From an uncultured virus (IMG/VR IMGVR_UViG_3300038315_001276) (taxonomy: Duplodnaviria; Heunggongvirae; Uroviricota; Caudoviricetes), in the IMG/VR virus record IMGVR_UViG_3300038315_001276: a stretch of DNA of 64,000 nt. One strand, written 5' to 3'. Of the stretch, positions 96 through 18,091 are shown one piece after another. Position 1 is the first letter of the stretch; every line of letters starts with the position of its first letter. Made by a program: the position numbers and the translations under genes. The notes below the pieces were generated by a model. It ran no database searches, was not told the origin of the DNA, and saw only the letters and a program-made list of their open reading frames with translations.

Positions 96-137
96 TATCA
101 ATAAGTTGAAGTGGTGCGGGTGAAGGGCCTCGAACCC
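96..137. repeat. att direct repeat, left copy (tRNA-Leu T-arm and acceptor end plus 16 bp)
   Basis: TATCAATAAGTTGAAGTGGTGCGGGTGAAGGGcCTCGAACCC, 41/42 identical to 18050-18091. Confidence 0.95.
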
Positions 138-153
138 GACCCAGACCCTTATA

Positions 154-191
154 AATCAATGACTTAGGTGGTGTTTTGTAACCATGTAACC
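154..191. promoter_or_regulatory. IHF consensus site plus putative integrase arm sites
   Basis: AATCAATGACTTA (154-166) fits WATCAANNNNTTR. TGTAACC occurs at 177 and 185, and again at 17989 and 18001. Confidence 0.6.
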
Positions 192-230
192 GCCGTCAGA
201 ATGGGCATTATTACGTAGGGTAAGACAGCA

Positions 231-410
231 TCAGTCTGACTGAACAGCGCGCACGAGTTCTCTGGCGCGTTCCATCAGCTTCTCATCACGCTCTAGCGCG
301 ACGATCTCTTTTTCCAGGCGTTCGAATATCGGCAGATACACCCGGTCAATCAGCACTAGTAGTGCGACCTTTAGTCTTGCGGCCTTAAGGCGTTCTAGTC
401 GTTCGGGCAT
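231..410 (-). CDS. Small hypothetical protein next to att (59 aa)
   Basis: C-terminal part of ORF 231..542. Helical sequence. Start uncertain. Confidence 0.5.
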   Translation of the reverse strand: MPERLERLKAARLKVALLVLIDRVYLPIFERLEKEIVALERDEKLMERARELVRAVQSD

Positions 411-617
411 ATTCTCAATAGGTGCGTGTGTGGTAATAACTCTATCACTGCGTGGCATGTTCTGAAAGGTCGCACGATTGTCAGAATTAGTTCTGCATGA
501 AGTGCAAGCGCTGAGATGCGAAAGGTGGCCATCATCGCGCATAGAGGGCTGGAGTATTCGCTATCAACATAGCAGCCCGCCGGTGTGATCCGGCGGGCAA
601 TATGTTAAGCGGGCGTA

Positions 618-1016
618 TCAGGCGGCGGCGTTGAGGTGCTCCCATTTCGACCGCAGATCAGCCTCTAGCTTCGACGCGTGGATGCGGGCTTTGAGCAATT
701 CACCTACGGCCTCTGCATGTTCTTTCAACTGTTCTGGTGTGAGTGCATACTCTGGGGCTAGATCGTGAAGTTCCCGGAAAAACTTCCCATAAAAACTAAG
801 GTGATCCGCAAGATAACCAAGAGAGGATTTGTCATCTTCCCACACATGCCCAATCAACACACGATCAAGGAAATAGTCCAGATCGACATGGTCGTGCAGG
901 CCCGTATCGTTGCCTGAAAGGATGTAGTTTTCAAGTTCTTCTGCAAACGTGGGTTGGGTCAGGTATTCCCGGAACGTTGCTTTGCCGCCGTTGATCGGTG
1001 TCATAAAGTCAGTCAT
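618..1016 (-). CDS. Hypothetical acidic protein
   Basis: Natural-looking ORF followed by hairpin 575-598. Confidence 0.6.
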   Translation of the reverse strand: MTDFMTPINGGKATFREYLTQPTFAEELENYILSGNDTGLHDHVDLDYFLDRVLIGHVWEDDKSSLGYLADHLSFYGKFFRELHDLAPEYALTPEQLKEHAEAVGELLKARIHASKLEADLRSKWEHLNAAA

Positions 1017-1073
1017 TGCATTCCCATGCGTTTTGGACGGGCCAACGGCCACGTTCTGTTGATGTATAAGACG

Positions 1074-1101: not shown

Positions 1102-1198
1102 ACTCAACGGGTTTATACCACGTTCCTGCCTAAAAGTATCTAGGAAAAAAGAGGTAAATTGCATGCATACGCTTGCGCTGCGAGTTTCTGCGGATCGA

Positions 1199-1366
1199 CT
1201 AATTTCCGCGAACGTTGGCTGGCCAGACACCGCCAAACTCGCCCAGCACCTCGGTGATCCGGTCAGATAGCGGGTGTGGGTGTGCGGGGTCACGGTCCAG
1301 CGCTGTAAGCGCGGCTACGAGGGCAGCGTGAGTTTCGTCGCTCAGATAGGTGTCAGTCAGGGCCAT
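1199..1366 (-). CDS. Unlisted 55-aa protein MALTDTYLSDETHAALV...
   Basis: Translated by hand. GGAG RBS 8 nt upstream of the ATG and a sigma70-like promoter further upstream. Confidence 0.6.
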   Translation of the reverse strand: MALTDTYLSDETHAALVAALTALDRDPAHPHPLSDRITEVLGEFGGVWPANVRGN

Positions 1367-1553
1367 TGTCGGCACTCCAAAGGGGTTGGTCGTGCCGCAA
1401 GATTCTCACAAGCAAATTCAGCGCGCAAGACACAAAACGCTTCTAAGTATTTGTTTTTAATAAGTAAATGATTACTTAGATCGGCCCCCGCAGCGGCTTG
1501 CTATCGCTGCAGGAGCTTTCCGTGAGTGCAAGAGTGACAAAGCCCTCACCCAA

Positions 1554-1568
1554 GAACATAACACGAAC
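1554..1568. promoter_or_regulatory. Alphaproteobacterial LexA (SOS) box
   Basis: Perfect GAAC-ATAACAC-GAAC, intergenic, overlapping a minus-strand TATGTT -10. Confidence 0.65.
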
Positions 1569-1580
1569 ACACCCTGCCCG

Positions 1581-1769
1581 CTAGGTGTTTTTGATCAGAT
1601 CGCCGATTGTGGTGCCAGCCGGTGCAACGCGCAGATGTTTGGCGATCATCTCAATAGCAGTAGTCAATTGATTGCTCCCAGCAGCTCCAATGCTGTCCGT
1701 CAGTGCCTTCGTTTTACGTCCCTGATCAGCCAAGACTGCCGCCGCCACCTGTTCACCGTTCATTTGCAT
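1581..1769 (-). CDS. Hypothetical protein
   Basis: Overlap-coupled to the upstream ORF. Confidence 0.55.
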   Translation of the reverse strand: MQMNGEQVAAAVLADQGRKTKALTDSIGAAGSNQLTTAIEMIAKHLRVAPAGTTIGDLIKNT

Positions 1770-1996
1770 TTACGAACTGCCTCTTCCAACTCCTGCTGGG
1801 TAAAAGCAAAGCGGCGATACAACTCTGCAAAGTCATCGCTCACGCTGTCGATATCGTCGAGCGCCGCTAAGACTGCCCGCTTCACATTCGCGTCGCGATC
1901 TCCGCCGATGTCGAGCGTCTTGCCATCCCCGTTCGGCTTCACGTCGAAAAAGCGCGCCATGTTGCCTTCAAAGCGCCGCCGATCATCGTCCATCAC
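1760..1996 (-). CDS. Hypothetical protein
   Basis: Start overlaps the stop of 1993..2658. Confidence 0.6.
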   Translation of the reverse strand: MMDDDRRRFEGNMARFFDVKPNGDGKTLDIGGDRDANVKRAVLAALDDIDSVSDDFAELYRRFAFTQQELEEAVRKCK

Positions 1997-2658
1997 TTCG
2001 CGTCCTCTGCTTTCTTCTTTGCGCGACGTAGCGCCTGTGTTTCCTTTTTACGTTCGCGAAGACGCTTTACCTTCTCGTCGGGCGTCTCAGCTGCCAGCAC
2101 TTCCTTGGGTGTCATCACATTGGCTTCGGGACGGTCACGGCGGCTTGCATTGCGTTCATCTTTCCCAATCGTCAGCTTGTATTCATCAATGCGCTCACGC
2201 TTACGGTAGGTATCATCAGTGGAGCGCTCAAGCTCGATCTTGATCCGGCGGTTCACCTCCGCAAGTTCCGCCATAACCTCGTGATAGCGCGGTTCCTCCG
2301 GGGTGAGCGTTGCCAGTTCCTGCTCCAATGGTGCCCGCTTTTTGAATTGCCGATCATACCGAGATGTATAGCCATGCACGATCGGGGTTGCTGGATGATC
2401 TGCTCGGATAGCCTCAAGTTCTTCGTCGGTGAACCTCGGGCCGGGGTGTAAGTCGGGAATATCCTCGTCGTTTGCGAGGGCGTCTATGGCGGCGAGTATC
2501 GCGGCCTTACCGCCATCCCCGCCCCAGCTGATCTCACCACTGTCAGACAGGCTGTGGCAGGTCTGCGGGTCGAAGGCGCGGTCCATGCGGTCCTCAAACT
2601 CGTGCTGGCGGCGGCTGCTATAAAATTCGTCGTCGGAAAGGCTTGTCATGTCAGGCAC
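1993..2658 (-). CDS. Hypothetical protein, acidic N-terminus and basic coiled-coil C-terminus
   Basis: 221-aa ORF with upstream TTGCAA-N17-AATATC promoter (2684-2712). Confidence 0.7.
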   Translation of the reverse strand: MPDMTSLSDDEFYSSRRQHEFEDRMDRAFDPQTCHSLSDSGEISWGGDGGKAAILAAIDALANDEDIPDLHPGPRFTDEELEAIRADHPATPIVHGYTSRYDRQFKKRAPLEQELATLTPEEPRYHEVMAELAEVNRRIKIELERSTDDTYRKRERIDEYKLTIGKDERNASRRDRPEANVMTPKEVLAAETPDEKVKRLRERKKETQALRRAKKKAEDAK

Positions 2659-3846: not shown

Positions 3847-5397
3847 ATGAGTGAACCAAAAAATATTGAAGTGCAAAAAATCCGTTTTGGCGATCCAGAT
3901 GCACTACACGAGTTCATGAAACAGGATAAAGACGGCTCTTTAGTCCTTCAAAACTCATTTGTGGCTCCGCCTAGAACCAGCCTAAGCGAGCTAAAATCAG
4001 GTTCAAAATATCTTATAGTTGGCCCAAAGGGATCGGGTAAGACCACACTGTTACTCTATTTAATGAGAGACGAGAAATCTGAGTATTCTCGTTTAATTTT
4101 GTTCAAAAGCAACATCCGTTCCGAAGATCGAAACAACTTGGACAAATTGGCCAAGATGATATTTGTGCAAGACCTTGATTCATATCGTATGGATACCAAC
4201 TACCGCACTATCTGGGAGTGGTATCTACTGAAGAATTTTCTAAGGCTACTAAGTGATAGTGATGTCATAGAGGGAAAAAGCCTATTCCGCGACATGGCTC
4301 TACTCTTAGAAGCTGATAAATCAAAATTCTCAGCGCTTTTCGATTCGATCAAAATTGATGGAGCAAAAGGGAACATAACGTTAAAAGTTGACACAGGCAT
4401 TCTGCAAACAGAGATAGCTGCTGAAATCAATGCTCGCAAGGTAGCTGGAAATGAAATACCATTATTAGACCTCGTGCGCCTTGTTCAAGGTGCGCTCCAC
4501 AAGGTTAAGCTCAAAGAAAGTGTAAAGTGTAGACTTTATTTCGACGAGTTAGAGTTTTCCCTTGAAAAGGATGGAGCTGGCGATCGAGATCGCCGTATGG
4601 TCCGTGATCTGATTTTTTCCATCTATAGCACTAACCTCCTGTTTCAGCAGTGTGGTATTAATGCCTTGTGCTATGCCGCAATTAGATCGGAAGTTCTGCA
4701 CTCATTTCCCAGCTCTTCTCAAGAGCTGGGAAAGATTACCAAGGCGTTTGGAACAAATCTTAGCTGGGAACCTCAAAACGATCAGCAAAGTGCAATTCTC
4801 GATATTTTCCAAAATAAGATAAATCAGTCTGAAATTGAAGAGACAGGACACTACCAACTTGATCCGTTAATTGAGTATTTTCCGAGTGAAGTGGGTGGCA
4901 AGGCTTTCTCAAAGTATATTCTTGACCAGGGTGGGCACAGGCCCCGCGGTGTATTGCTGTGTCTGCTGGCTGCCGCTGAACGTGCATGGGGCGCAACAAA
5001 ATTTGAGGCCAGACATTTTGAGGATGATGACAATATTTTTGGCATCGCAATGCTAGATGAATTTAAAGAGGAACTTTCCGCAACGATGTTTGAGGAAGAG
5101 GTTGAAGCGGCACTTTCTCTATTGAGGGGAAAAAATAGCTTTTTCAGTGTATCTGACCTTCGCTCGCGGATGAGCGAATTCAATACGGCGATCAGGAAGC
5201 AAGTCTTTTATCCAGAAAAAGACGCTACCCGAATTATAAATGCACTATATAGAGTTGGCATTGTCGGCAATGCATACTTTACTGAAGAAGGAAATTTACC
5301 GAGGCAAACATGGGCCAATAGAGGATACCCAACGCCACTCATCGACAAAAATTTCGTAGTCCACCTGTCTATACAGAAGGTTTTGCAAACAAATTGA
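3847..5397 (+). CDS. P-loop NTPase (Sll1717/FunZ-like), candidate defence cargo
   Basis: Walker A GPKGSGKT and Walker B RLYFDELE. AT-rich and opposite in strand to the element. Confidence 0.8.
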   Translation: MSEPKNIEVQKIRFGDPDALHEFMKQDKDGSLVLQNSFVAPPRTSLSELKSGSKYLIVGPKGSGKTTLLLYLMRDEKSEYSRLILFKSNIRSEDRNNLDKLAKMIFVQDLDSYRMDTNYRTIWEWYLLKNFLRLLSDSDVIEGKSLFRDMALLLEADKSKFSALFDSIKIDGAKGNITLKVDTGILQTEIAAEINARKVAGNEIPLLDLVRLVQGALHKVKLKESVKCRLYFDELEFSLEKDGAGDRDRRMVRDLIFSIYSTNLLFQQCGINALCYAAIRSEVLHSFPSSSQELGKITKAFGTNLSWEPQNDQQSAILDIFQNKINQSEIEETGHYQLDPLIEYFPSEVGGKAFSKYILDQGGHRPRGVLLCLLAAAERAWGATKFEARHFEDDDNIFGIAMLDEFKEELSATMFEEEVEAALSLLRGKNSFFSVSDLRSRMSEFNTAIRKQVFYPEKDATRIINALYRVGIVGNAYFTEEGNLPRQTWANRGYPTPLIDKNFVVHLSIQKVLQTN

Positions 5398-5618: not shown

Positions 5619-7994
5619 CTACCTGTTCAATAGGTTCCCCGGCCTCATCTGCCGCTGTATCTCGGTCACAACCGCGCCGCGCAACGTGTTTTCTAGCTCC
5701 CGAGCCATTTTGCGCGCCAGATCGTTGTTCTGGTCCGGCGTGCCCGCTGATCCGTTAACAGTAACCGGGGCACTGATCGAAATGGTGGGCGCAGAGGCGC
5801 TGGCATGGCCCTTAGAGTTCGGTGAAGGCGAGCGGGCGGCACCGACAAGGCCGCCGCCAGCATAGCCCCTCAGGGCGCTCAGGTGCAGCGCTTCAAGCGC
5901 AGGCACACCGATAGCCTTGGTGGCGGCTGCGCTGAGAACATACTCGCCTTTGTGGACAATGCCTGCAGGTTCAAACCTGCCACCCGCGCCGGTGTATCCA
6001 CCAGCAGCAAAACCGCCACCGATTACCTGCAAGACTTTGCCAAACACTGATCCACCTGCACCGCTGGCAGCTTCAAGCAGCCGCTTCTTGAGCGCCAGCT
6101 TGATCAACTCAAGGATCAGTTGACCCACGGCCTGTTTTGCCGTCATTGCACCGGACGCCATGCCCTCAAATACGCTGGCAATCCGGTCTGCACCAGCGCC
6201 GCTGGCGTTCTGAACCTCTTCGATCTTGTCCGCCGCCAATTCAGCTGCACTGCCCGCGACGGTGTATTCCTTGGCTAGTGTGTCGATTTGGGCGGCAAGC
6301 TGCGGCGTCACTTCCACGCCAGCACGTTGCGCCGCCGCCAGCAGCTCAGCTTTAGTGCAGGCAAACTCCACTGCGTAACCATAGCGAAGCTGTGCACCGG
6401 ATACTTCGGCCAAGGCTTGAGCCTCGATACGTAGGGCATTTGTCTCAAGCACGATATTCTCGATCTCGCGTTCAAGATCGCTCTGCCGCGGCGCACCAGC
6501 GCCGCCCTTGCCACCACCACTGCCGGAAACCTGCTCTGGTGCGCCAAAGCTGGCATCGACGCTCGGTAGCGCAGGGCGCAGAGATGTGCCAACCGCCAAG
6601 CCGGGTGTCGCGGCGCGGTAGCCATTGCGCGACTTCGGGCCGGGGTGCATGTATGACGGCGCAACTGTCTCACCACCCGGCAATGCACCGGGCAGGCTCG
6701 CGCGCAGGGCACGAGCGTTCGCCGCCGCTGTGGCAAGTGCCTTCACCAAGCGGCTAAGGCCCCCGATGACATAACCAAAATCAACACCGTCGATGGCGTT
6801 CACTTCGGCAAGTGTCGCCTGTGCTGTTGCGGTTGTCTCCGCCAGCCGCTGTTCAAACTCATCCGCGCCGATGGCACCGCTTGCTAGATCGTTGACCAAC
6901 TTGCGCATCTCGGTCGCTACCCGGTCCATTGCGTTCGCTGCATCGGTCTGACCCATGGTGCGCAGCTCAGTCGCGACCTTGGCAAGACGGGTCGCATTGC
7001 GCTCAGCGATATAGCCGGTTTCATCATAGGCACTTGCCAGCGCCTCAATCTCTGTGCGGTGCGTCTCTACCGCGCGGGCATCACGGTTTAGCTCATCATA
7101 GATACCCGCGCCCAAAAGCGCGCTGCCCTGCCGCGGATTATCGAAGAGGTTGTCGATATGACTGCGCACCTCTCCAAGTTTAGGCATAGCCTTAGCAATA
7201 CCGAGCACGAGCGATTTCATGAACACATCGGCGCGTGTCTGCAGTGCTGCAAAGCGTTGGTCGAGTTCAGCAGCCTTTTCGATCAGTTCGCTGTCCAGCA
7301 CCGCGCCGGCGTCATTTGCGGCGCGGATGGTATCGCGCAACTTGGCCTCGCCACGGCTGACCAGCTCGGCAAAGCGCTCGCCAGCCGATCCACCGAACAA
7401 TTCGTCGCTGATCCTGATCCGCGCAGCCTCATCCATGCTTTCCATGCGCCCGATGATCTCAAGCAACAGTTTGGAAGGGTCTGCCAGTTTGGCCTTAAGT
7501 TCAGTAGCCCCATACCCCAAGCGGGCAAACGCTTCGGCTCCCGCGCCCTGCCCGGTAACGACAAATTCGTCAGCCCGCAGGTTCAGCTCTTTCAACCCGT
7601 CAACGATCTGATCAATGCCGATGCGGTTCTGCGCGCCTACAAACTTCCATTCCTGCAAGGCCTGAACGCTGACCCCTGCCCGTTTTGCCTCATCCCCGAT
7701 CTGCGCTGTCTCATTTACGATCCGGCCAAGGTTCTGTGACAAACCAGACAAAGCACCTACGGTCAGGCCACCCACCAGACCACCGGCCAAGCCGGGGCCA
7801 AGGCGCTTGAACGTGGCAAGGATGCTGTCACCGGCCTTGCCGTAGGTGTCGCGCAGCTTGTCAGCACTCTGGCGGGCACGGCGCTCCATTTGGTCGCTGG
7901 CGCGGTTCTGCGCAGCGTTGGCGCGCTTTAATCCTTTTTCGAGTTTGTCGATGCGGGCTTCTATATCGACGACAAGGCCGGGAAGGTCAGACAT
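5619..7994 (-). CDS. Tail tape measure protein
   Basis: 791 aa, Ala/Gly-rich and helical, with lambdoid TMP C-terminal motif FAAGGYTGAGGRFEPAGIVHKGEYV. Confidence 0.85.
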   Translation of the reverse strand: MSDLPGLVVDIEARIDKLEKGLKRANAAQNRASDQMERRARQSADKLRDTYGKAGDSILATFKRLGPGLAGGLVGGLTVGALSGLSQNLGRIVNETAQIGDEAKRAGVSVQALQEWKFVGAQNRIGIDQIVDGLKELNLRADEFVVTGQGAGAEAFARLGYGATELKAKLADPSKLLLEIIGRMESMDEAARIRISDELFGGSAGERFAELVSRGEAKLRDTIRAANDAGAVLDSELIEKAAELDQRFAALQTRADVFMKSLVLGIAKAMPKLGEVRSHIDNLFDNPRQGSALLGAGIYDELNRDARAVETHRTEIEALASAYDETGYIAERNATRLAKVATELRTMGQTDAANAMDRVATEMRKLVNDLASGAIGADEFEQRLAETTATAQATLAEVNAIDGVDFGYVIGGLSRLVKALATAAANARALRASLPGALPGGETVAPSYMHPGPKSRNGYRAATPGLAVGTSLRPALPSVDASFGAPEQVSGSGGGKGGAGAPRQSDLEREIENIVLETNALRIEAQALAEVSGAQLRYGYAVEFACTKAELLAAAQRAGVEVTPQLAAQIDTLAKEYTVAGSAAELAADKIEEVQNASGAGADRIASVFEGMASGAMTAKQAVGQLILELIKLALKKRLLEAASGAGGSVFGKVLQVIGGGFAAGGYTGAGGRFEPAGIVHKGEYVLSAAATKAIGVPALEALHLSALRGYAGGGLVGAARSPSPNSKGHASASAPTISISAPVTVNGSAGTPDQNNDLARKMARELENTLRGAVVTEIQRQMRPGNLLNR

Positions 7995-8006: not shown

Positions 8007-9623
8007 TTAGAATATGAAAAGCCCTTCGGCTTCGGGTGCGTTGTATTTGCTCAGCTTGGTTTCAGCGGCGCAGGCTCGGGACACAGCCATCGCGGCGGCG
8101 ATAGCCCCGTCGATCCGGTCAGTCTTCTTGCCTTTGTGCATGCGGATCAGCCCGGATGTCGGATTGCGTGATGCGACCACGCTGTCGAAGTGCTGGCGAA
8201 GCGCTGCATGATCAGCGTGCCGGATCAGATCACCGTTCACCGTGCGTTCGAGGTCACCGGCAGCCACACCCATGTTCAGCGGGGTCTGCCGGTATTCGAT
8301 CACGGGCAGACCGTCATCATGCAGGCTTTGCATCAAGCGGCGAGCAAGGTGCGGGTCCACGGCGATCTCCTGCACGTCATTGGTCGCGCATATCTCCCTG
8401 ATCTGGTCTTCGATCAGCCCAGCGTCGATGATTGGGCCGGGTGTCACAAAGATCAGGCCAGCGTCGCGCCATTCCTCATAGGGCAGCCCGTCGCGATCAG
8501 CGCGGCCCTTGAGGTCATCACTGGGCACAAACAGCCAAGGGTGAACCGTGATCTGGTCATCATCATGACGCCAAGCCGCGACCACCGCGGTCAAGTCACC
8601 AGAGAGAGACATATCAACGCCAAGATAGCAGGGAAGGTCTGCTAGCGCGTCAAAGTCCGGTTCAAACACACGAGCATCATAGGTCGTCATATCAAACAAC
8701 GGGTCGCGGCTATTGGCCTGCCAAACGTTCAAGTTGAATTGCAGGAACGCTGCCCGGTCTGCGGGCTTGTTCTCTGCCTCTTTCGCCAAGCCGCGCATGC
8801 CGTCGATGGACGGGAAGCCATGTGCAAGACCGGGGTTGGCGCGATGCCATACCGTTTCATCCTGCCAATCATCGTCAGGTTCAGCTTGGAACAGGATAGG
8901 CAGATAGGCCGGGTTGTCGATTTCGCCCAGCGCGACGCGGCGGGCATAATTATACTGTTCTGATGCCAAGGTCTCGGCACCGCGTCCGGCAGTCGTGGCG
9001 ATCACGGTCAGGCTGTCACGCACCTTGGCTGCACCACTGCGCAAGGCTTCCCAAAGGTCGCGGCCTTTCCAGATGTGGATTTCGTCGATCAGCGTGAATG
9101 TGGGTGTCAGGCCATGCGCAGCACCGCCATCAGATGACAAGGCGCGCAGCGTGACGTTCTCAGCGTTGAATACGATCTGCTTGGCGCTGTTGAAGGCGTC
9201 ATAGATGCGCGTTGCCGCGATCAGGCGCTTGTCCATGCGCACAATATTTGCGGCCTCACGAAAGCCGATCCCAGCTTGATCACGATCCGCAGCGGCAAAC
9301 AGCACCTGACCGGCTGGCACCCGCTCGGGGCCGATGGTGTGCAGCAACGCAAGCGCTGCGGCAAGGCTGGTCTTGCGGTTGCCGCGTGGCACCAGAAAGA
9401 ACACGTTTTGCACAATCCTACGCCCGTCCGGGTGCCTGGGGCCATAGATGCGCCGCACGATCCGCTCTTGCCACGGTGCAAGCTGGAAGGCACCGCCCGG
9501 TGCGTCGCTGTTTGGATGCCGCAATCGGCGCAGAAACTGAACGGCTCTTTCGCCGTATCCAAGCGGATCGGCTATCGGGCTGTTGTCGTAAATCCAGGCT
9601 GGATATGACACAGAAGCTACCAA
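8007..9623 (-). CDS. terL: Terminase large subunit (HK97-like group)
   Basis: LAPWQ, PRGNRKT, LIDEIH, ATTAG, nuclease motifs GVDMS and RIDGAIA. Confidence 0.95.
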   Translation of the reverse strand: MVASVSYPAWIYDNSPIADPLGYGERAVQFLRRLRHPNSDAPGGAFQLAPWQERIVRRIYGPRHPDGRRIVQNVFFLVPRGNRKTSLAAALALLHTIGPERVPAGQVLFAAADRDQAGIGFREAANIVRMDKRLIAATRIYDAFNSAKQIVFNAENVTLRALSSDGGAAHGLTPTFTLIDEIHIWKGRDLWEALRSGAAKVRDSLTVIATTAGRGAETLASEQYNYARRVALGEIDNPAYLPILFQAEPDDDWQDETVWHRANPGLAHGFPSIDGMRGLAKEAENKPADRAAFLQFNLNVWQANSRDPLFDMTTYDARVFEPDFDALADLPCYLGVDMSLSGDLTAVVAAWRHDDDQITVHPWLFVPSDDLKGRADRDGLPYEEWRDAGLIFVTPGPIIDAGLIEDQIREICATNDVQEIAVDPHLARRLMQSLHDDGLPVIEYRQTPLNMGVAAGDLERTVNGDLIRHADHAALRQHFDSVVASRNPTSGLIRMHKGKKTDRIDGAIAAAMAVSRACAAETKLSKYNAPEAEGLFIF

Positions 9624-10064: not shown

Positions 10065-10457
10065 CTAAACTGCCAGCGGGTTGTCATCATCTGAACTTTC
10101 GTCGAAGTCGCATCCAATACGCGTACGGCTTACCGGTGACAATCCATACTCAGCCGCAAGCTGGCGCGCAGTTTGCGCCGCCCGGTTCTGCACTCCGAAG
10201 AGTTTTGCGTCGATGTTTGCGGCATTCATGGCGCGGTTCGTTTCGATCTCGCGCACCACACCGATCATCATGCAGTAGTGTTCCACGCCTGCAAGATCAG
10301 CCTTGGTCAGCACCCGGTCTTTGATCAACCGCGGCATTATGCGTTTCCACTCAGCCGCGGCATAGGTGCTGAAATACTCTGGCACTGGCGGCGCTTTGGT
10401 CAGGGCGTCCTTGCTGGTCTTGGCTTGCGGTTTCACGCCGCGCAGGTGTGCGCTCAT
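10065..10457 (-). CDS. terS: Terminase small subunit, P27 family
   Basis: RGVKP, PP.P...A.EWKRI and EYGLSPVSR motifs. Confidence 0.9.
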   Translation of the reverse strand: MSAHLRGVKPQAKTSKDALTKAPPVPEYFSTYAAAEWKRIMPRLIKDRVLTKADLAGVEHYCMMIGVVREIETNRAMNAANIDAKLFGVQNRAAQTARQLAAEYGLSPVSRTRIGCDFDESSDDDNPLAV

Positions 10458-10783
10458 GGTTCGTTCACCCCGTTGACGCAGTGCAGTTCAAGCGCCAACC
10501 GATCCAGCGGCACGATCCGCACAATGCGATAGGTCTGGTTAACATGGATCACACGCATATCCGCGTTGATCCAGTCCACTACCCAAATGCGAAACACGTT
10601 GCGTGTTTCGGTGCGTTCAGTGCCGGTCAGGAACGTCTCTGCGCCTTCTTGCACCAGTTCAGCCCGCAAAATCTGTTCTGGTATCCAGCTCAGATGAACC
10701 GCACCCGAAGGCAGAACCGTTTCCAGCCTGCTTTCAAGTGTGATGCGCTCACGCAAAGCCCCTGCCCTGATCATGCGCGCCAC
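10454..10783 (-). CDS. Head closure / head-tail adaptor
   Basis: AGALRERITL motif, size and synteny. Confidence 0.8.
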   Translation of the reverse strand: MARMIRAGALRERITLESRLETVLPSGAVHLSWIPEQILRAELVQEGAETFLTGTERTETRNVFRIWVVDWINADMRVIHVNQTYRIVRIVPLDRLALELHCVNGVNEP

Positions 10784-11193
10784 CGGATCACAGCTTCGAT
10801 CTCAAGAACGCCGTGGGTAAACGCCAGCTCCGGCTGTGGGTCGCGCAACCAGATCAGGCGCGGCTGGTCTAGCTGGTCGATGCTAAACCCGTCTTGCTCG
10901 TCTGCCATGCCGATCAATGCACGGGATACGGCAAACCCGATGGCCTTGGCAGTGTCTGGACCGTCTTCAATCGCCCAAATGTTCAGATCGACGTTCACCC
11001 GTGCAAGGTGCTGGTCACCCGATGCGCGACCTAAGTATTGCGTCGATGCGCCGGACAGGACGACGCAAGGAAACTTGTCAGGACGCGTCGATCCGGCCCG
11101 AATGCGTTCAGGCTGCACGAGGTCAGTCACTGCCGGGTGCGCAAGCAGCGTGCCCCGCACGGCGGTTTGTAAGGCGAGACTAGGTTCGATCAT
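10771..11193 (-). CDS. Tail terminator (DUF3168-like)
   Basis: LALQTAV..L...V..RI, LNIW and THGVL motifs. Confidence 0.8.
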   Translation of the reverse strand: MIEPSLALQTAVRGTLLAHPAVTDLVQPERIRAGSTRPDKFPCVVLSGASTQYLGRASGDQHLARVNVDLNIWAIEDGPDTAKAIGFAVSRALIGMADEQDGFSIDQLDQPRLIWLRDPQPELAFTHGVLEIEAVIRWRA

Positions 11194-11606
11194 ATCGCAC
11201 CGGCTTTCTTGATGGCTGCGCTGATTGCGCGATTGATCCGATTGAGGACACGGGCTTTGGCGATACGGAAACCGGGGCGCATGAATGGCTGTGACTCATG
11301 GTTCACGGTGCCAAATTCCTGCATGTGGCCGGTGCGCACATCCGTGTTGCCGACTGTCACCAGCGCCTGATTAGGCGCGGCAGTCACTGATCCACCGCCC
11401 ACGGCATAAGGCGGCGTTGTCTCACCGGGGCCGGTGACGGCGATGGACGCTTTTAGATCGCCCTCATCGACCGGCACGAGCGCCCGCATATTGGCGGCAA
11501 CTTCCTCTGCGCCCTTCACAAGTGCCGGACGCACGCCCGCCAATACTTCTTGCGGTATCGCCAGCAGGCGCTTTTCCAGTGCGGCAGATCCCTTAAGCCG
11601 CGACAT
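11190..11606 (-). CDS. HK97 gp10-family tail completion protein
   Basis: VPVDEGDLKASI and EFGT...QPFMRPG motifs. Confidence 0.9.
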   Translation of the reverse strand: MSRLKGSAALEKRLLAIPQEVLAGVRPALVKGAEEVAANMRALVPVDEGDLKASIAVTGPGETTPPYAVGGGSVTAAPNQALVTVGNTDVRTGHMQEFGTVNHESQPFMRPGFRIAKARVLNRINRAISAAIKKAGAI

Positions 11607-11895
11607 GACCGGTCACACTTTCGCGGTAGGGGTTGATAAGCTTAAGGACGCCGAACGGCACAGCGCTCAGCCGCACGTCGCTGGCACTCTCGCGCTGGAC
11701 ATACCAATACGCCGCAAGCTGCAGGGCAGCTTCAGTCAGTGATGCCGGGATAGGATCGTGGTCAGCGAAGGGTGTGCCGGTAAAGTTGCCAATCCATTCT
11801 TCGGCCACGGCCAATTTGTGTGACAGCAAACCGTCATCAAAGTCATGGTCGAGATTCAGCTGTGCCTTCAGCAAGGGCAGCGATGTGATGGTCAT
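11593..11895 (-). CDS. Head-tail connector (HK97 gp6-like)
   Basis: LK.QLNLD..DD.LL and A.LQLAAYWY.QRE motifs. Confidence 0.9.
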   Translation of the reverse strand: MTITSLPLLKAQLNLDHDFDDGLLSHKLAVAEEWIGNFTGTPFADHDPIPASLTEAALQLAAYWYVQRESASDVRLSAVPFGVLKLINPYRESVTGHVAA

Positions 11896-12299
11896 GCGGT
11901 TCTATCCTGAAAAGTTATATTCGGGGTCTCTTGTGCGCGTGTCCCCCCGCCGGTCCCCTGATCTTGCGCAATGTTTTTGCCTACCCCCCGCATGGTGCTT
12001 GCGCGCTCCCGGATACGGGTTGTGCGGCGCTGTGCGCGGCGTTTGACGCTGATCAGCTGTTCTGGTGCTGGTGCATTTGCAATGCGCCTGATCAAGTGCT
12101 CACGGGTTGCGACCGGATCTACACCGGCGAGTGAGCAAACCATGTCAAAGTCGCTGTTCTGGATGGTCAGGTATTTGCGATTGCGCTCGATCTCGTTAAT
12201 GCGCGTCGCGCGGCTCTTGCTGGCAGACGATGTGCCAGTAAGGGCATCACTGATCGCCAAGGATAGCACTTCACACCAGAGGGCTTGATCTGAGTTCAC
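11892..12299 (-). CDS. Conserved-looking phage hypothetical protein
   Basis: GTG start overlaps the HNH stop. LW.EVL.LAISDA...DF.MVC.LAG.DP pattern. Confidence 0.65.
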   Translation of the reverse strand: MNSDQALWCEVLSLAISDALTGTSSASKSRATRINEIERNRKYLTIQNSDFDMVCSLAGVDPVATREHLIRRIANAPAPEQLISVKRRAQRRTTRIRERASTMRGVGKNIAQDQGTGGGTRAQETPNITFQDRTA

Positions 12300-12640
12300 A
12301 GTGTGCGCTCCAGCCGTTGTTTGTGTCGGTTGTGGCAAGGGGCGCAGAGGCTCTGCCAGTTGTGTTTATCCCAGAACAACATCATGTCGCCTTTGTGCGG
12401 CGTGATGTGATCCACCACAGTTGCCAAGGCATTGCAGCCGGGATGTGTGCAGACAGGATTGAACTGTAGCCATTCCTTGCGGGCAACTTCCCATTGGCGC
12501 GTATAGCCACGCTGGCGCGCGCTGGGCCTGTTTGTATCATGGCGCTTGTTCCGCGCACGGGTGGCCGCAACCCTGCAGGCACAGCGCTCGCCATGCGCCA
12601 CGATGGCACCACAGGTGCAAAGGTGCGGCGGGCGGCTCAT
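12296..12640 (-). CDS. HNH endonuclease (terminase cofactor, HK97 gp74-like)
   Basis: RGY...W, C...C, VVDHITPHKG and NWQSLCAPCHN. Confidence 0.92.
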   Translation of the reverse strand: MSRPPHLCTCGAIVAHGERCACRVAATRARNKRHDTNRPSARQRGYTRQWEVARKEWLQFNPVCTHPGCNALATVVDHITPHKGDMMLFWDKHNWQSLCAPCHNRHKQRLERTL

Positions 12641-13260
12641 GTCATCTTCGCCTTCAAGGCATGCAGCCCGGCGCGATCAAAATCAGGATCAAGGCCAGCG
12701 TCAATGTTCGCCTGTCGCTGATCGTTGTTCATGGTGGGTGCGTTGGCATCTTGGTCATCTCCACCGCCGTGAATGGACTTTAGCTGATCGACGTGACCGT
12801 CAAAGGCGTTCAGGATTTCCGGCAGCGTGGCGTTCCAAGCTGTGTCCGGCGTCCAGCCAAGCCAACCTGTCGTCAGTTTGTAGAGGTCTGCATACAGATC
12901 AGCCCATGCGACTGCCTTAGCTGCAGGTGCCTTCGCGGCCTCGCCCGTGATCTTGTCAGATACCGGGGTCATCAGCGCTGTGAGAAGTGCGAAGGCTGGT
13001 GCAAGCATGACTTGCTGGACCGTGCGCAAGGAAGCGCCAGACAGGGCGTTAAGCACTGTCTGAGCCGCCGCACGGTCAGGTGCTGCATACCGAATAATCT
13101 CGCGGATCGTCGCGGTGTCAAATTCATGCAGCTTCGAAAGCAGGGCGGGAAACCCGCCGTGCAATGCCTCAAGGTGCGTCGCGGCACGCAGCGACGGTTT
13201 GAGCCAAACGGTGTTGCCACCGTAGGCCAGAGCGATGTCAGATGCGTGCCGCTGCATCAT
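12637..13260 (-). CDS. Tail assembly chaperone, two-domain (G-like plus T-like)
   Basis: N-terminal LKPSLRAA.HLE and C-terminal LGWTPDTAWNATLPEI. Confidence 0.65.
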   Translation of the reverse strand: MMQRHASDIALAYGGNTVWLKPSLRAATHLEALHGGFPALLSKLHEFDTATIREIIRYAAPDRAAAQTVLNALSGASLRTVQQVMLAPAFALLTALMTPVSDKITGEAAKAPAAKAVAWADLYADLYKLTTGWLGWTPDTAWNATLPEILNAFDGHVDQLKSIHGGGDDQDANAPTMNNDQRQANIDAGLDPDFDRAGLHALKAKMT

Positions 13261-13261: not shown

Positions 13262-14824
13262 TTATGCCGCGCACTTCAATTTGATGAAGCGATCAGGGTG
13301 CGTCACGTCTGCGCCGACACGCTTGCGGGCATGGAAACGCACCTGACCATTCACAGCAAGGCTGTAGGGGTCACGCAACGTGGTCAGGCCCACGCGGTCA
13401 ATAATCCGGTAGCCCTGCATGTCGCCAAACAGGATCGGGTAAGTGTCCGCGCCGACATCGTCCATATCCGGCATTTCAACCACCGGACGGCCAAGCAGCG
13501 TCGAAGGTGCGCCAGCGGTGATCGGATCAAGCACGAGATAGCGGCCATTGCCATCTTTCCACTGCCGGACGATGGCCAGCGTGTTGCGGTTCATGATCCA
13601 GACACCGGACTGCGCGTAAGTCGTGGCGATCATGTGATACATCGCGATCAGCACGTCAGCAGGGTTTGACGCGGGGAAGTTTGCCGCGACGCCGGTTTTC
13701 AGCTCGGCAATGCCAGACGCGGCCATGATGCCGAACGGCTGCCCAGCGCCGGTGCCTTTGACAAAGGCCAGCCCTTCTGTCCTCGCGAAAGACTCGGCGA
13801 AGTCAGACAGCAGCTCACCTTCAAGATTATAGGCGTTGTCTTCAAGCAGCGCGTTCGACACGTCCGTGAACGTGGCCAGTTCGTGCGGTGTCATTGTCAC
13901 CTGTTCAAACGTCATGCCGGATGCGGTGCGGCTGGCGATCTCGGCAACCCACGTTGCTGAGGTGCCGGTGACACGGCGCGGATACACGATAGAGGGTGCG
14001 CTGATCGAAATGACTTTCGCGTAGGACCGGATCGGGCTGAACTCTGTCAGCAGCTTGATCAGTTCACTGCCAAACTCTTGCGGTGCCAGATAGCCCGCGC
14101 TGGCGTCATTTGCGACGGTCAGGGCTTTGACTTCTTCTGGAGCGATCCGTTCGACACCACGGCGCAGGAAGTTACCAAACGCCTTGGTTTCGGGGTCTGT
14201 GACCGGGCCAGTGATGTGAACGCCTTGCGGGCGGTTTGCTTTCGCTTCGATCTTATCCAGCCGGGATTTGATTTCGTCGAAAGCTTTGGTGTCCATCTGG
14301 GGCGCGTTGGCCGGTGCAGATGGATTGATCGGATCTTCGATAGTTTCGGTATTCATGTTTTGTTCCTCAGTAGGCTTTGCGGTGCCGTCCGATTTCAGGG
14401 AAGTGATCTGTGCGCCCGGATGGCACGGCACAGCGACAACAGAGATTTCATGCAGGGACAGCGCGGTGATCGTGCGGCCCTTGGCGCGCGGTGTTGACTT
14501 GGTGGTGACAAAACCGATGGACAGGCCCGACACGGCTTTCGCGCTTATCATCGCCTGCACTTCGCGGGCGCGCGCCACATCGTCGATCAGCAGACGGCCT
14601 TTGACAGTCAGGCCAGCATCAGTTTCTTCGATCTGGTCCCAAACGCCGATGACCTGCCCCTGATCGTGTGCAAACAGCATCGGCAGCGTGACAGGTGCTG
14701 CGATAGCACCCTTTTCAATCACGTCACCGACGCGATCAGCGCTGCCAAATGGCCACGCAATGCCTTCGATCAGCCCTTCGGGCGTGACGGTCAGATCAGC
14801 TTTGAATTCTAAACGGGTCGTCAT
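13262..14824 (-). CDS. Fused prohead protease and HK97-fold major capsid protein
   Basis: Protease motifs LFAHD, GLSIGF and EISVVAVP, a linker, then capsid motifs AGYLAP, WVAE and ILFGD. Confidence 0.93.
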   Translation of the reverse strand: MTTRLEFKADLTVTPEGLIEGIAWPFGSADRVGDVIEKGAIAAPVTLPMLFAHDQGQVIGVWDQIEETDAGLTVKGRLLIDDVARAREVQAMISAKAVSGLSIGFVTTKSTPRAKGRTITALSLHEISVVAVPCHPGAQITSLKSDGTAKPTEEQNMNTETIEDPINPSAPANAPQMDTKAFDEIKSRLDKIEAKANRPQGVHITGPVTDPETKAFGNFLRRGVERIAPEEVKALTVANDASAGYLAPQEFGSELIKLLTEFSPIRSYAKVISISAPSIVYPRRVTGTSATWVAEIASRTASGMTFEQVTMTPHELATFTDVSNALLEDNAYNLEGELLSDFAESFARTEGLAFVKGTGAGQPFGIMAASGIAELKTGVAANFPASNPADVLIAMYHMIATTYAQSGVWIMNRNTLAIVRQWKDGNGRYLVLDPITAGAPSTLLGRPVVEMPDMDDVGADTYPILFGDMQGYRIIDRVGLTTLRDPYSLAVNGQVRFHARKRVGADVTHPDRFIKLKCAA

Positions 14825-15150
14825 GCTGCGGTGTCCCCGATGGCCGGTTCAGCCGTGCCGTTCCAACGGGCGTCAAGGATGTCGAGTGCGAGCGGGAATG
14901 TCTCAGCCATTGGGCGATTGCGCGCATATGTATCGACAAGCTGCATCGCCTGTTGCGGGTGCATGCCTGCCCCGATCAATCCAAGCCGGATGACGTGCGC
15001 CAGTTCGTCAGATTTGAACAGCATCGATACCGCGCGCTGATAGAAAGCGCCGATGCCGGTTTCGGTCAGGCGCTCCAATTCGGTGATCATATCGTCGGTC
15101 AGTGTGAAGTCGTGTTCAGCGGTGGCAAAGAATGCGCGGTGCGAGATCAT
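14821..15150 (-). CDS. GTA-gp10-like tail assembly chaperone
   Basis: F.LT...I.ELE..T.GI and IRLGLIGAGM motifs. Confidence 0.7.
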   Translation of the reverse strand: MISHRAFFATAEHDFTLTDDMITELERLTETGIGAFYQRAVSMLFKSDELAHVIRLGLIGAGMHPQQAMQLVDTYARNRPMAETFPLALDILDARWNGTAEPAIGDTAA

Positions 15151-16334
15151 GATGCGTCAGCCTCTGGGGCCGGGGCAGATGCGCCGGACGTGGTGTAGGG
15201 GTTGGCAAGGCTGTTGCCATCGGCAAGCGGCGCAAGGTTCAAACCGCTGCGCACCTCGTTTGCCGTTATCGCGCCCATGCTGCGATACTGACCATAGGCA
15301 CCGGCACGCGCCGTTGCGTTGGTGGTCAGCAGATCATCGGTGACAAATTCGATATAGAACGCGGCGCGCTCTTCTGGCGTGAACAGGACACGGGCGTATG
15401 CCCATGCCCAACTCACCAGCCAAGGCTTTAGCGTGATCGCATAGAACTGGCGCGCCATCTCTTCTGTGTTGGACCATGTGCCGCGTGTCAGCTCAAACAG
15501 CATTGTAGGCGGCACCCGAAAGACGCGGGCGATCTCGCGGATTTGCTCAAGCCGGTTTTCCGCAAACTGCGCGTCGGCAAGGGTCATGGAAAGCTGATCA
15601 TAGCTCATGCCCTCGTCCAAGATGGCGGTGCCACCGGCGTTGCGCCCTGCGTGAGTGTTGAACCAAGACGCCGCGATCTTCTTCTTGGCCTCTACGTCCA
15701 GCATCTTTTCGCTTTTAATGATGCCAGAGGGGCGCGCGCCATTGGCAAAAAGGCTGGCGACGTGCTGTTCGAAGGCAAGGCTGAGTGCGATGGCTTCACG
15801 GCCAAGGGTGATCGGTGAGACGCCGCCGAAAGGCTGGATATGCAGGATGTCGCGGTAACTGTAGCGACGTGGCCCCTGATCAGTCTGAACGATATAAAAG
15901 GGTTCACCGTCCGGCTCATAGTCTGTGCGCACACTGGAGGGATCAATCCGGTGCAATTCGAAGGGCGCGCCATCGGTCAGCCTGACAACCTGCGCATAGC
16001 CATTTCCGGTCAAAAGTGCGTCGATGGTCAGGTGTTCGCGCAGTTGGCCTGCAGAGGTCCACTCGTTCGCTTCATCATGCACGAGGCGATAAGCGCCCTG
16101 CCCCTTCGCCGCTTCTCTCGTGTCAGTCAGATGGACCTTGGCAGGCATCGCACCAATGGTCTCAGAGATGAGCGCCACGGCGCAAGCAACAGCTGGAACA
16201 CGCAAGGCTGAGTTGCCGCTGACATGAATGCCGGTAGCGGTTGGCGTTGCACCAAAAAGGCCAAAAGCCTCTGGATCAGTCAGGCTCAGGGCTTTGGATT
16301 CGTGCTTGCGAAATAGGCGGTCGATAAAGGACAT
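15147..16334 (-). CDS. Portal protein, HK97 family
   Basis: AV.ACV.LISE, LLTGNGY, FANGARPSG, IARVFRVPP and T.NEVR. Confidence 0.95.
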   Translation of the reverse strand: MSFIDRLFRKHESKALSLTDPEAFGLFGATPTATGIHVSGNSALRVPAVACAVALISETIGAMPAKVHLTDTREAAKGQGAYRLVHDEANEWTSAGQLREHLTIDALLTGNGYAQVVRLTDGAPFELHRIDPSSVRTDYEPDGEPFYIVQTDQGPRRYSYRDILHIQPFGGVSPITLGREAIALSLAFEQHVASLFANGARPSGIIKSEKMLDVEAKKKIAASWFNTHAGRNAGGTAILDEGMSYDQLSMTLADAQFAENRLEQIREIARVFRVPPTMLFELTRGTWSNTEEMARQFYAITLKPWLVSWAWAYARVLFTPEERAAFYIEFVTDDLLTTNATARAGAYGQYRSMGAITANEVRSGLNLAPLADGNSLANPYTTSGASAPAPEADAS

Positions 16335-16351
16335 TCAGCATTCCATACAGG

Positions 16352-16390
16352 GTGGTATCTATATACCACACCGCTGAATCGCTGTGAATC
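16352..16390 (-). promoter_or_regulatory. Morphogenesis operon promoter with palindromic operator
   Basis: TTCACA-N17-TATATA. GTGGTAT-N4-ATACCAC palindrome covers the -10. Two GANTC sites 10 bp apart. Confidence 0.55.
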
Positions 16391-16407
16391 CACTAAATGT
16401 TATATTA

Positions 16408-17976
16408 TTACATTTTAATGTTGTAGTCCGGCAGTCGAGCGATGGCATCGGCCTTGGTCTTGATCGTCACATCACCATAGTGGTCGGCAGCGGTCCTTCC
16501 AGCGTGGCCTTGAATAGCGTCGGCTACACGATCGGAGATACCCAGTTCGCGGCACTGCGTTTTGAGCCTGTGCCGCCATGCGTGGTTGGGTTGAATGCCA
16601 TCAGGCACCAGCCCGCCTTTGCGCAACCAGTCTGACAGCTTATTCGAGACGATTACAGCCGCGCCTCTGAACTTTTCGGGCTTGGTCGCATTGTGGAACA
16701 GTGGACCTTCGTCAGCATCTTCAATGAATCTGACAAAACCCTCTGCAACTATCTGAGCATGCAGCGGCACGTCACGATAGCCGCCGGATTTGACAGTGCC
16801 AGCGTCCGGCGTGATCCGCGCGACCCAATGTTCGCCTACCTTGGTTACGTCCTCTTTCCGCAACTGAATAATTTCAGAAACCCGCGCACCGGTAAACGCA
16901 CAGATGATCGGCACCCACCGCTTTACGTTCGCCATTTTCGTAGATTCACGCACACGTCCAAATTCGTCCGGTGTCGATTGATACGTGCGTGACGCCTTCA
17001 ATACCTTCTTGGCCTCGTCATCGGTGTATCCACGTTCACGGCCATACACTTTGCGCGGTTTAGGCTGTCGCACCGTTGCCGCTACATTCTCGGGCAGGCG
17101 GTCATTTTCTACAGCCCATGCCAGCACTGATTTCAGAGCAGAGAGGTAGATGTCGTTAACAGTCTTTGGCGATAGCGATTTCATTAAGTGGTCTCGCCAA
17201 GCCAGCACGTCTTTTTTCGTGACGCGACCAGCGTCGTTGTGTTTAAGAAATTTGCGCAGGTTGTCGATCACTGGGCGATGTCGCTGCCCTTTGTCGCGCA
17301 TGAAACCGGCCTGCATCCGACTGTTCAAATAATCGGCCCAGAGGCCGGTCAGGCTGACCGGCGCAGGGGCCTTTTCAGCCTGGGTGGCGTCCTTAAGTAT
17401 CGGTGCAGTCGGTGTGCCGGTATAGTCACCTTCATCACGCTCAGCGACACGTGCCAGCGCTTCTAGCTCTGCGCTGCACAAGGCCCGAGCGATCACCCGC
17501 CATTCATCGCTGCCATGCACCGCATCGATATTCCCAGCTGCCCTGAATCTTTCGAGCTGATCACCGATGACCGACTGCAGCTCATCATCACTACAGCGGC
17601 CTGCTACTGCTTGGCGCAGTTGATAAACGTAAAGATCATCAATGCCGGTGTTAGCGTATCGTGAATCATTTCGCAGAAGGTCGTCGAACGCCAAACGCTG
17701 ATGGTAGTGGCTGAGAGCGATTTGGTCTGGTGCCAGAGGATACCGGGCTTGGGCTGGCTTCTGCCTTCCTTGCGACTCTTCGCGCTCAGCCAGCGCGATC
17801 TGGTGCTGTAGCTGCGCCACGGCCCCGGGTAAGAGCTTGAGGGCCTGCCTGTAGTCTGCCCCTAGTGCCCTGCGAAGCTCGGTCTTGCCGACAATACCGC
17901 GAAGATCTTTAGGGACAACAAGGCGGGCGTGATACCGCCCGGATCGATTGATGAGATGCCTGATCTTGCCAGCCAT
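16408..17976 (-). CDS. int: Tyrosine integrase with DUF6538-like N-terminus
   Basis: TGARVSE, VK, HAWRH, GH and DHYG catalytic set. Adjacent to att. Confidence 0.93.
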   Translation of the reverse strand: MAGKIRHLINRSGRYHARLVVPKDLRGIVGKTELRRALGADYRQALKLLPGAVAQLQHQIALAEREESQGRQKPAQARYPLAPDQIALSHYHQRLAFDDLLRNDSRYANTGIDDLYVYQLRQAVAGRCSDDELQSVIGDQLERFRAAGNIDAVHGSDEWRVIARALCSAELEALARVAERDEGDYTGTPTAPILKDATQAEKAPAPVSLTGLWADYLNSRMQAGFMRDKGQRHRPVIDNLRKFLKHNDAGRVTKKDVLAWRDHLMKSLSPKTVNDIYLSALKSVLAWAVENDRLPENVAATVRQPKPRKVYGRERGYTDDEAKKVLKASRTYQSTPDEFGRVRESTKMANVKRWVPIICAFTGARVSEIIQLRKEDVTKVGEHWVARITPDAGTVKSGGYRDVPLHAQIVAEGFVRFIEDADEGPLFHNATKPEKFRGAAVIVSNKLSDWLRKGGLVPDGIQPNHAWRHRLKTQCRELGISDRVADAIQGHAGRTAADHYGDVTIKTKADAIARLPDYNIKM

Positions 17977-18049
17977 GGTAAACCCGTTTGTAACCAAAAC
18001 TGTAACCGTTGAACGGACTTCCAGCCTTATTTGCAAGGGTATTGTTTGT

Positions 18050-18091
18050 TATCAATAAGTTGAAGTGGTGCGGGTGAAGGGACTCGAACCC
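18050..18091. repeat. att direct repeat, right copy
   Basis: Matches 96-137 with one mismatch. Confidence 0.95.

Follow-up and report, generated by a model that had tools for sequence, protein, structure and literature searches.

A capsid-forming integrative element with its own tape measure protein and tail chaperones, probably a satellite of RHEph10/pLM21S1-type phage-plasmids

How could an integrated element that encodes a head, a tape measure protein (TMP) and tail assembly chaperones build a tail if it has no gene for the tail tube? This question is raised by the island at positions 96 to 18,091 of a 64,000-nt stretch of DNA from an uncultured virus (IMG/VR record IMGVR_UViG_3300038315_001276; the whole stretch is hereafter called the window). 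The initial annotation had proposed that the island borrows tube and tip from another siphophage or from a host RcGTA-type gene transfer agent (GTA). We found that the gene content of the island is conserved, that its core genes are under purifying selection, and that two interface segments, the end of the TMP and the end of a fused chaperone, match the RHEph10/pLM21S1 family. The island is probably a capsid-forming integrative satellite of Alphaproteobacteria whose helper is a phage or phage-plasmid of this type, about 110-120 kb long and related to the AB group and SSU5.

The gene order on the minus strand agrees with the initial annotation, and Pfam and PHROGs support every named gene. From the integrase side to the distal end, the features that concern head, tail and packaging are as follows.

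18050..18091, no strand: integrase-side att copy, 42-nt repeat
16408..18036, minus strand: tyrosine integrase with DUF6538 (dN/dS 0.08); the real start is probably a later ATG
15147..16334, minus strand: HK97-type portal (PF04860; dN/dS 0.07)
14821..15150, minus strand: gpG-like tail assembly chaperone, 109 aa (PF11836; dN/dS 0.12)
13262..14824, minus strand: fused prohead protease-major capsid protein (MCP; PF04586 and PF05065)
12637..13260, minus strand: fixed G-T fusion chaperone (GT), 207 aa, with G-like N-terminal domain, linker and PF09550-like T domain (dN/dS 0.20)
12643..12699, minus strand: C-terminal motif of GT (GLDPxFDRxGLxALK type), also found in RHEph10/pLM21S1-type T chaperones
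12296..12640, minus strand: HNH nuclease, cos-terminase cofactor type
11892..12338, minus strand: variable 148-aa hypothetical protein, overlapping the cos-like site (dN/dS 0.45)
11910..11989, minus strand: candidate cos/packaging site, a motif conserved at the DNA level
11593..11895, minus strand: gp6-like head-tail adaptor (PF05135)
11190..11606, minus strand: HK97 gp10-like tail completion/neck protein (PF04883)
10771..11193, minus strand: tail terminator (PF11367, phrog_176; dN/dS 0.11)
10454..10783, minus strand: head closure protein (PF05521)
10065..10457, minus strand: P27-type terminase small subunit (TerS; PF05119)
9695..10048, plus strand: moron, 117 aa, with a signal-peptide-like start, not conserved across the family
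8007..9623, minus strand: terminase large subunit (TerL; PF03354/PF20441)
5619..7994, minus strand: TMP, 791 aa, with a lambda gpH-type C-terminal region (phrog_10574; dN/dS 0.085)
5622..5807, minus strand: C-terminal 62 aa of the TMP, matched in the helper type, proposed tip-binding end
96..137, no strand: att copy at the distal end, 42-nt repeat corresponding to a tRNA 3' end

The island genes abut or overlap, so that no space is left for a tube gene. When all six frames of the complete window were searched by hidden Markov models for a tube (two profiles), Dit and gpI (one profile each), nothing matched, and Pfam and PHROGs identified no lysis gene among the open reading frames (ORFs) of the island or the other ORFs of its relatives. 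These searches bore out the initial description of an intact, tightly coupled run from integrase to TMP without tube, tip or lysis genes, and they support the reading that the island makes its own capsid, tape measure and chaperones and depends on a helper. The island differs from a GTA, a domesticated cluster that has a complete tail module (tube, Dit, hub and megatron) and no integrase, and from a complete temperate siphophage, whose tube, tip, lysis, replication and immunity modules it lacks.

The 109-aa protein carries "tail tube" wording from the descriptions of PF11836 and phrog_8985. Its AlphaFold2 (AF2) model (pLDDT 87.7) consists of a beta-hairpin and five helices. Among the structures that it matches over its full length is, weakly, the HK97 tail chaperone 2OB9 (Z 4.5, rmsd 3.8, 79 residues aligned), and no tube fold occurs among the 50 structural matches listed for it. 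In the model of the 207-aa protein, the N-terminal topology is that of the 109-aa protein and is followed by a disordered linker and a helical second domain; the match between the 207-aa protein and the 109-aa chaperone profile has an E value of 5e-4. A single tube annotation, weak at E 0.5, appears among the listed fold matches of the two proteins. Because the models are helical and no tube profile matched, we rejected both proteins as a hidden tube, in line with the earlier view that no ORF encodes one. Sequence searches with the 144-, 148- and 221-aa ORFs yielded no family or Atlas name and no tube-profile match, and a function search with the 148-aa protein gave nothing.

In complete phages such as VW-6S, the T part is a separate ORF between G and the TMP gene, and in Xanthobacter relatives it is split from G. 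We therefore interpret the 207-aa protein as most likely a fixed gpGT fusion that stands next to a free gpG. For lambda and TP901-1, TMP binding is given as the likely role of the G domain and recruitment of tube protein as that of the T domain, and the G:GT ratio matters (available text of PMC4493119).

We then compared the island with its relatives. The MCP as query identified 52 IMG/VR loci, 49 of which share the island gene order as far as the contigs reach, and the order is identical across MCP identities from about 35% to 100%. In GTDB, the GT alignment yielded 112 confirmed stretches, of which 80 were kept. In a terL tree (FastTree, 103 rows), the window lies within an 85-row clade (support 100) that contains no tube-bearing row and covers roseobacters, Paracoccaceae, rhizobia and Hyphomonas; the 10 rows with a tube fall outside it. 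Of the clade loci, 71 non-redundant ones extend from the portal gene to the end of the TMP gene; none of these has a tube gene, whereas 17 have a gpM-type Dit and five a gpI-like gene. Pairwise dN/dS was calculated against up to 16 close loci, and pairs with dS outside 0.05-1.5 were dropped. The median was 0.07-0.20 for 13 core genes (the TMP value of 0.085 rests on 4 pairs), and the weakest constraint was that on the 148-aa ORF (0.45). The 85-row tube-less clade and these dN/dS values indicate that the island is not a decayed prophage. Two points that the initial annotation had named as checks, conserved absence of tube and tip in homologous islands and purifying rather than relaxed selection on the core genes, were thus both supported.

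The family was present in 7 of 401 sampled Rhodobacteraceae genomes (about 2%). A tRNA gene adjoins the integrase at 29 of 44 genome loci, and the size is 17.0-18.5 kb at the four loci that show both att sites. Tube-bearing relatives exist (L054, L109, L110 and others); L054 is a complete 23-kb Methylorubrum plasmid with tube and Dit and without an annotated fibre or lysis gene. A circular, tube-less 17.5-kb plasmid of Paracoccus marcusii (L053), with a replication initiation protein and no annotated integrase, is a plasmid form of the satellite.

The searches with the TMP end and the GT end were not seeded with the helper. The last 62 residues of the TMP matched 10 of 50,697 phage records, all of them RHEph10-like Rhizobium phages of 115-122 kb. 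They also matched 17 plasmid records, comprising six tube-bearing elements of 115-119 kb, eight family members and three unclassified records. Record G052 shares 75% identity with the last 48 residues. The best eight RHEph10-type TMP ends scored 99-110 bits, whereas GTA ends scored 3.7 bits at most. Among 75 distinct TMP ends, 73 were closer to a helper than to any of the GTA, lambdoid or tube-bearing comparisons, and over all 75 the median helper alignment score was 202, compared with 45 for the best GTA. The divergence of the TMP end is discordant with that of the remaining gene, a sign of possible exchange, and we propose from the sequence that the 62 residues form a tip-binding end.

The GT-end motif was found in 83 of the 95 distinct GTs of the tube-less clade, but in none of the 21 relatives with a tube and none of 5 additional tube-bearing loci. 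A search of 1.84 billion proteins returned 98 matches, that is, 76 family GTs, 10 helper-type T chaperones (assigned via their N-terminal part) and 12 unassigned proteins, mostly fragments. The T ORF of pLM21S1 scored 40.5 bits, compared with 6.3 or less for five GTA T ORFs. The remaining T domain of the island is unrelated to that of the helper, and GT therefore looks chimeric. We propose that its C-terminal motif may be the tube-recruiting segment.

The Dit kept by some family members led to IMG/VR contigs of 109-116 kb, whose tube gene groups them with RHEph10, pLM21S1, Acinetobacter AB plasmids and SSU5; the AB group and the SSU5 supercommunity are relatives of RHEph10 and pLM21S1 (available text of PMC7969092 and PMC5537653). 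This Dit is of the helper type (57-62% identical), and so is the gpI that some members keep. The helper type encodes DnaB, DnaG, DnaE and ligase, its TMP is 1521-1586 aa long compared with 791 aa in the island, and its neck proteins belong to families other than those of the island. When three helper records were compared with the reference set, matches were limited to the TMP end, the GT end, Dit, gpI and two short accessory hits. One family member, represented by two overlapping contigs, has a helper-type tube gene (L245:5668-6198 / L247:1079-1609; about 60% identical) between MCP and GT; the gp6, gp10, terminator and closure genes that come next are of the family type. No second captured helper tube was found among 21 metagenome loci and 30 further family loci. 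In a tube-less lineage with a different GT ending, the TMP ends were closest to helper L154 (8 of 10) or L165 (1 of 10), the tenth being a broken ORF; none of 74 main-clade TMP ends chose L154 or L165 as closest. This third type of GT ending resembles the T ORFs of L154 and L165 by eye only. Taken with the TMP-end and GT-end matches, the suggestion that the donor is another siphophage was probably right, and RHEph10/pLM21S1-type phage-plasmids can be named for it.

We propose the following course of events. Upon infection or induction of the helper, the island would excise and use helper replication and lysis functions; helper DnaB, DnaG, DnaE and ligase could cover its lack of a recognisable replicase. 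It would make its own small head and cos-package its 18-kb genome. Rather than taking finished tails, it would enter tail assembly from the start: the C-terminus of its TMP would dock onto the helper tip complex (M/L/K/I/J type), a coat of separate G chaperone and fixed GT fusion would form on this TMP, and the helper-like GT end would recruit helper tube subunits. The island terminator and neck would then cap the tube, so that, under this proposal, these tails would fit island heads only, and the particle would bear the receptor-binding tip of the helper. Because the helper neck proteins are of other families, docking of a finished helper tail in the manner of phage-inducible chromosomal islands that form capsids (cf-PICIs) would be unlikely. 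The island would thus keep the set from head to terminator, the ruler and the chaperones, and match the helper at the two ends that contact borrowed parts. Judged by TMP size, its tails would be about half as long as those of the helper. In lambda, tail length corresponds to about 0.15 nm per TMP residue, which would give a rough estimate of 115-120 nm for the island.

The relatives suggest a series, from members with their own tube and Dit to tube-less members with a helper-like GT end and then to members without Dit. For the family as a whole, a broader proposal seems to us somewhat more plausible than its negation, and is put forward with less assurance than the helper of the island itself. 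It is that of a widespread alphaproteobacterial satellite family specialised on RHEph10/pLM21S1-type phage-plasmids that lost its tail stepwise (tip, tube, Dit), gained helper-like interface segments, tracks helpers lineage by lineage and, without its own replicase, makes chimeric siphovirus tails of half length with its own terminator as the cap.

Several observations weigh against the proposed helper. The helper-type tube was found in 0 of 50 island-bearing genomes and in 0 of 401 Rhodobacteraceae genomes (positive control 5/5), so that infection would have to bring the helper in. Five helper records gave no match at the DNA level, and the closest helper records, G052 and G053, have no host assignment. 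Contigs of 4 of 24 public sequencing runs, which as contigs drop rare forms, showed no excision joint (circle or empty site) and no raised depth. Partial similarity at the TMP end (51-84 bits) also extends to some relatives with a tube and to two other prophages. The strict GT-end motif is missing from 12 of the 95 clade GTs, only 5 of 47 helper T ORFs match it strongly (23-40 bits), and the T of RHEph10 itself scores 2.9 bits. A profile of the third-type GT ending gave no significant score against helper T ORFs. Finally, the island terminator is remotely GTA-like, not helper-like.

That the satellite borrows tube and tip from the host RcGTA-type agent, as the initial annotation had favoured, is very unlikely. 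A GTA cluster was present in all five island hosts tested, whereas the RHEph10-type tube was found in none of 50, and the terminator and G-chaperone profiles of the island match GTA homologues weakly (E 4e-5 to 4e-3) and helper homologues not at all. The GTA likeness of chaperone and terminator that had been noticed is thus real, though remote. Against a GTA donor, the TMP-end, T-ORF and alignment scores of GTAs given above lie far below those of the helper type, BLASTP found no match between island and GTA, and where members have kept Dit and gpI, these are helper-type genes and not GTA Dit. On the interface segments, we rejected GTA as the donor. A different siphophage with a lambda-type tip is unlikely too, as are several donors, possibly with two helpers (one of them an inducer, for example the neighbouring podovirus, and the other the donor of the tail). 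TMP ends of prophages L170 and L171 do score 51-67 bits, region 585-789 of the island TMP matches lambda gpH, tube-less relatives with other GT endings exist, and use of two helpers is described for cf-PICIs (available text of 10.1101/2025.02.11.637232). The lambda gpL profile (PF05100), however, occurs in 0 of 43 hosts, by which a lambda-type resident prophage was rejected as donor; the TMP-end search of the phage collection and the GT-motif search of proteins point to the RHEph10-type family only; and two of the four runs hold the island without the podovirus.

The island might instead act mainly as an anti-phage decoy, whose TMP and GT titrate helper tips and tube and spoil tails while its own heads stay tail-less or rarely spread. 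The same matching of sequences would be expected, the family holds defence cargo, and the satellite protein Rta interferes with tail assembly (available text of PMC12987554). We consider this quite unlikely: a pure decoy would not need the terminator, neck, closure and packaging genes that are under purifying selection, and the family is spread across many genera and tRNA sites. A decoy effect is nevertheless compatible with the satellite explanation; the two are not exclusive. A decayed prophage remnant would account for the tube-bearing relatives and for the lack of visible excision in the contigs of four runs. This reading is extremely improbable and largely refuted by the constant gene order over the whole range of MCP identity, the low dN/dS, the narrow size range at loci with both att sites and the circular tube-less plasmid form, and even the complete tube-bearing plasmid L054 is without an annotated fibre or lysis gene.

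The satellite of an RHEph10/pLM21S1-type helper can be compared with known systems. Like the cf-PICI EcCIEDL933, the island has an integrase and its own HK97-type capsid, protease, portal and adaptor/closure (available text of 10.1101/2022.09.08.507074), and it shares with cf-PICIs HNH, TerS, TerL, the lack of lysis genes and the dependence on helper tail parts (available text of PMC10085698). Capsid, protease, portal, head-tail adaptor/connector, HNH, TerS and TerL are all island-encoded, and the island is bounded by att sites and carries an integrase, as cf-PICIs do. cf-PICIs have alpA and pri-rep genes, and finished tails are docked onto their heads via adaptor and connector (available text of 10.1101/2025.02.11.637232). 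In contrast, neither AlpA nor a primase is recognisable in the island, its genes stand in another order, and it has additional genes for terminator, gp10, G, GT and TMP, that is, tail genes that are absent by definition from cf-PICIs and that are here under selection. SatelliteFinder turns down cf-PICI candidates with tail genes (available text of PMC10085698). According to the legend of Extended Data Figure 10b of PMC12987554, putative tmp genes occur in some cf-PICIs, and these elements could include members of the island family.

Chimeric tails have been shown experimentally for PLE11, one of the Vibrio cholerae PLEs (elements resembling phage-inducible chromosomal islands), which has its own TMP and tail chaperone and takes the tube from the helper (available text of PMC12987554); at the level of genes, the island likewise combines its own TMP and tail chaperones with the absence of a tube. 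PLEs use the helper capsid protein, parasitise a lytic myovirus with a contractile tail (ICP1) in Vibrio and encode replication functions (same source). The island differs in its alphaproteobacterial hosts, its own MCP with whole head, neck and terminator, its non-contractile tail target and its fixed GT fusion, the end of which is helper-like. The EPIPs of Mycolicibacterium are small satellites with MCP, adaptors and TMP and without a tail tube, as is the island; their altered tail length has been seen by electron microscopy (PMC12822802). EPIPs are 11 kb long, have a serine integrase, list only TerS, use an actinobacterial prophage as helper, and are not reported to have tail chaperones or a terminator (PMC12822802).

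RHEph10 and pLM21S1 themselves share with the island family the TMP C-terminus, the C-terminal motif of the T chaperone, Dit, gpI and, in one island relative, the tube gene; they differ in size (110-122 kb), in having their own replisome, in their TMP of about 1500-1590 aa and in their head and neck. RcGTA-type agents have remote family-level likeness in G (PF11836), T domain (PF09550) and terminator (PF11367). They have their own tube and tip, a TMP of about 220 aa with an unrelated end, and no integrase or att site, whereas the island has a cos-like site and att-bounded mobility. The published cf-PICI heads, PLE chimeric tails and EPIP TMPs are precedents, and the concept is therefore not categorically new; new here are the proposed combination of cf-PICI head-making with PLE-like chimeric tails and the naming of a probable helper, of RHEph10/pLM21S1 type. 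We found no description of the island family, or of any satellite of RHEph10/SSU5-related phage-plasmids, in the text of the open-access literature, figures and supplements aside.

If the proposal is true, the island would be the first phage-plasmid satellite to come out of these searches, and chimeric tail building would extend from PLEs to non-contractile tails and be joined with the cf-PICI strategy. Two short segments, the T-domain end and the TMP end, may set the compatibility of tail parts, and the family would be a natural map of tube-chaperone and tip-TMP binding codes. The separate G gene beside a fixed GT fusion would be a natural case of a G:GT ratio set without a frameshift. What looks like a defective prophage in 7 of 401 Rhodobacteraceae and many rhizobia would become a testable satellite-helper pair with isolated phages, RHEph10 and pLM21S1. 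The family, which holds anti-phage cargo, would also fail the published cf-PICI model, as that model forbids tail genes.

The boundaries of the island are given by the 42-nt direct repeat (98% identical) at 96-137 and 18050-18091, which span 17,996 bp. The repeat reads as a tRNA 3' end, and ARAGORN found no whole tRNA in the window. In two of the four public runs (X6 and X14), the integrase-side repeat runs on into the remaining tRNA, which by eye appears to be tRNA-Leu(TAG), with no podovirus between. These runs possibly share the source DNA of the window and are not independent support for the island. In the window itself, 18092-64000 holds a podovirus-type prophage, as judged by its gene set, in the same tRNA site; its own integrase runs past the window end. 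Because two of the four island-holding runs lack this podovirus, it is dispensable for the island, and we rejected it as a required partner. Contigs of X6, X14 and X20 share an att-like stretch at 53-136 and then diverge into other sequence, which suggests a further element stacked in the same tRNA site. Within the podovirus, a low-G+C moron for a multi-pass membrane protein lies on the opposite strand inside the late region (20452-21501), and three spaced repeats of about 22 nt at 52931-53008 in the replication initiator gene are probably origin iterons.

At two four-fold degenerate positions of the motif at 11910-11989, all 70 matching sequences have C (against a background of about 53% and 67%), and the motif is similar to the stretch that precedes terS where the genome of phage VW-6S ends. 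For these reasons, we regard it as a candidate cos site. A scan for promoters and terminators gave results at chance level. A search of the phage collection for the tail terminator returned no match. Neither AlpA nor a primase-rep family was matched by Pfam or PHROGs among the island ORFs and the 202 cluster representatives of the other ORFs of relatives; a divergent equivalent may be present among the small island ORFs. Two further features lie between the TMP gene and the distal att copy.

3847..5397, plus strand: cargo gene for a Sll1717-family P-loop ATPase, low in G+C; relatives hold defence genes in this slot
1199..2658, minus strand: small-gene module (221, 78, 62 and 58 aa); the 221- and 58-aa ORFs recur in relatives

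The small genes, which have no family match, are candidates for a regulation/replication module. A small, secreted-looking ORF rich in Cys and Asp at 3345-3566, also present in L056, has no family match and may resemble the Excalibur calcium-binding domain. The other ORFs of relatives (102 and 100 cluster representatives) comprise defence cargo and no tube, lysis or primase family. The defence cargo includes a retron reverse transcriptase-TIR gene (L018:12624-14123), Septu PtuAB (L013:3071-5025) and TIR-TM (L089:19143-19991).

Variants of the gene set occur elsewhere in the family. Rhizobial TMPs (L055:19098-21815) have a D-Ala-D-Ala carboxypeptidase-like domain that plasmid databases label vanY (about 31% identity); this is probably a TMP domain for wall degradation rather than a resistance gene. 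In some relatives outside the main clade, a phrog_5707 protein of about 130 aa lies between MCP and GT (L099:5307-5702, L119:9567-9947, L121:9534-9992); it did not match the tube profile and is possibly a head decoration protein. Gene order is rearranged in the Bradyrhizobiaceae-type loci L106, L107, L121 and L125, and in some members of this type the TMP is preceded by a second PF11836-like chaperone and the portal is followed by a gpI-like gene.

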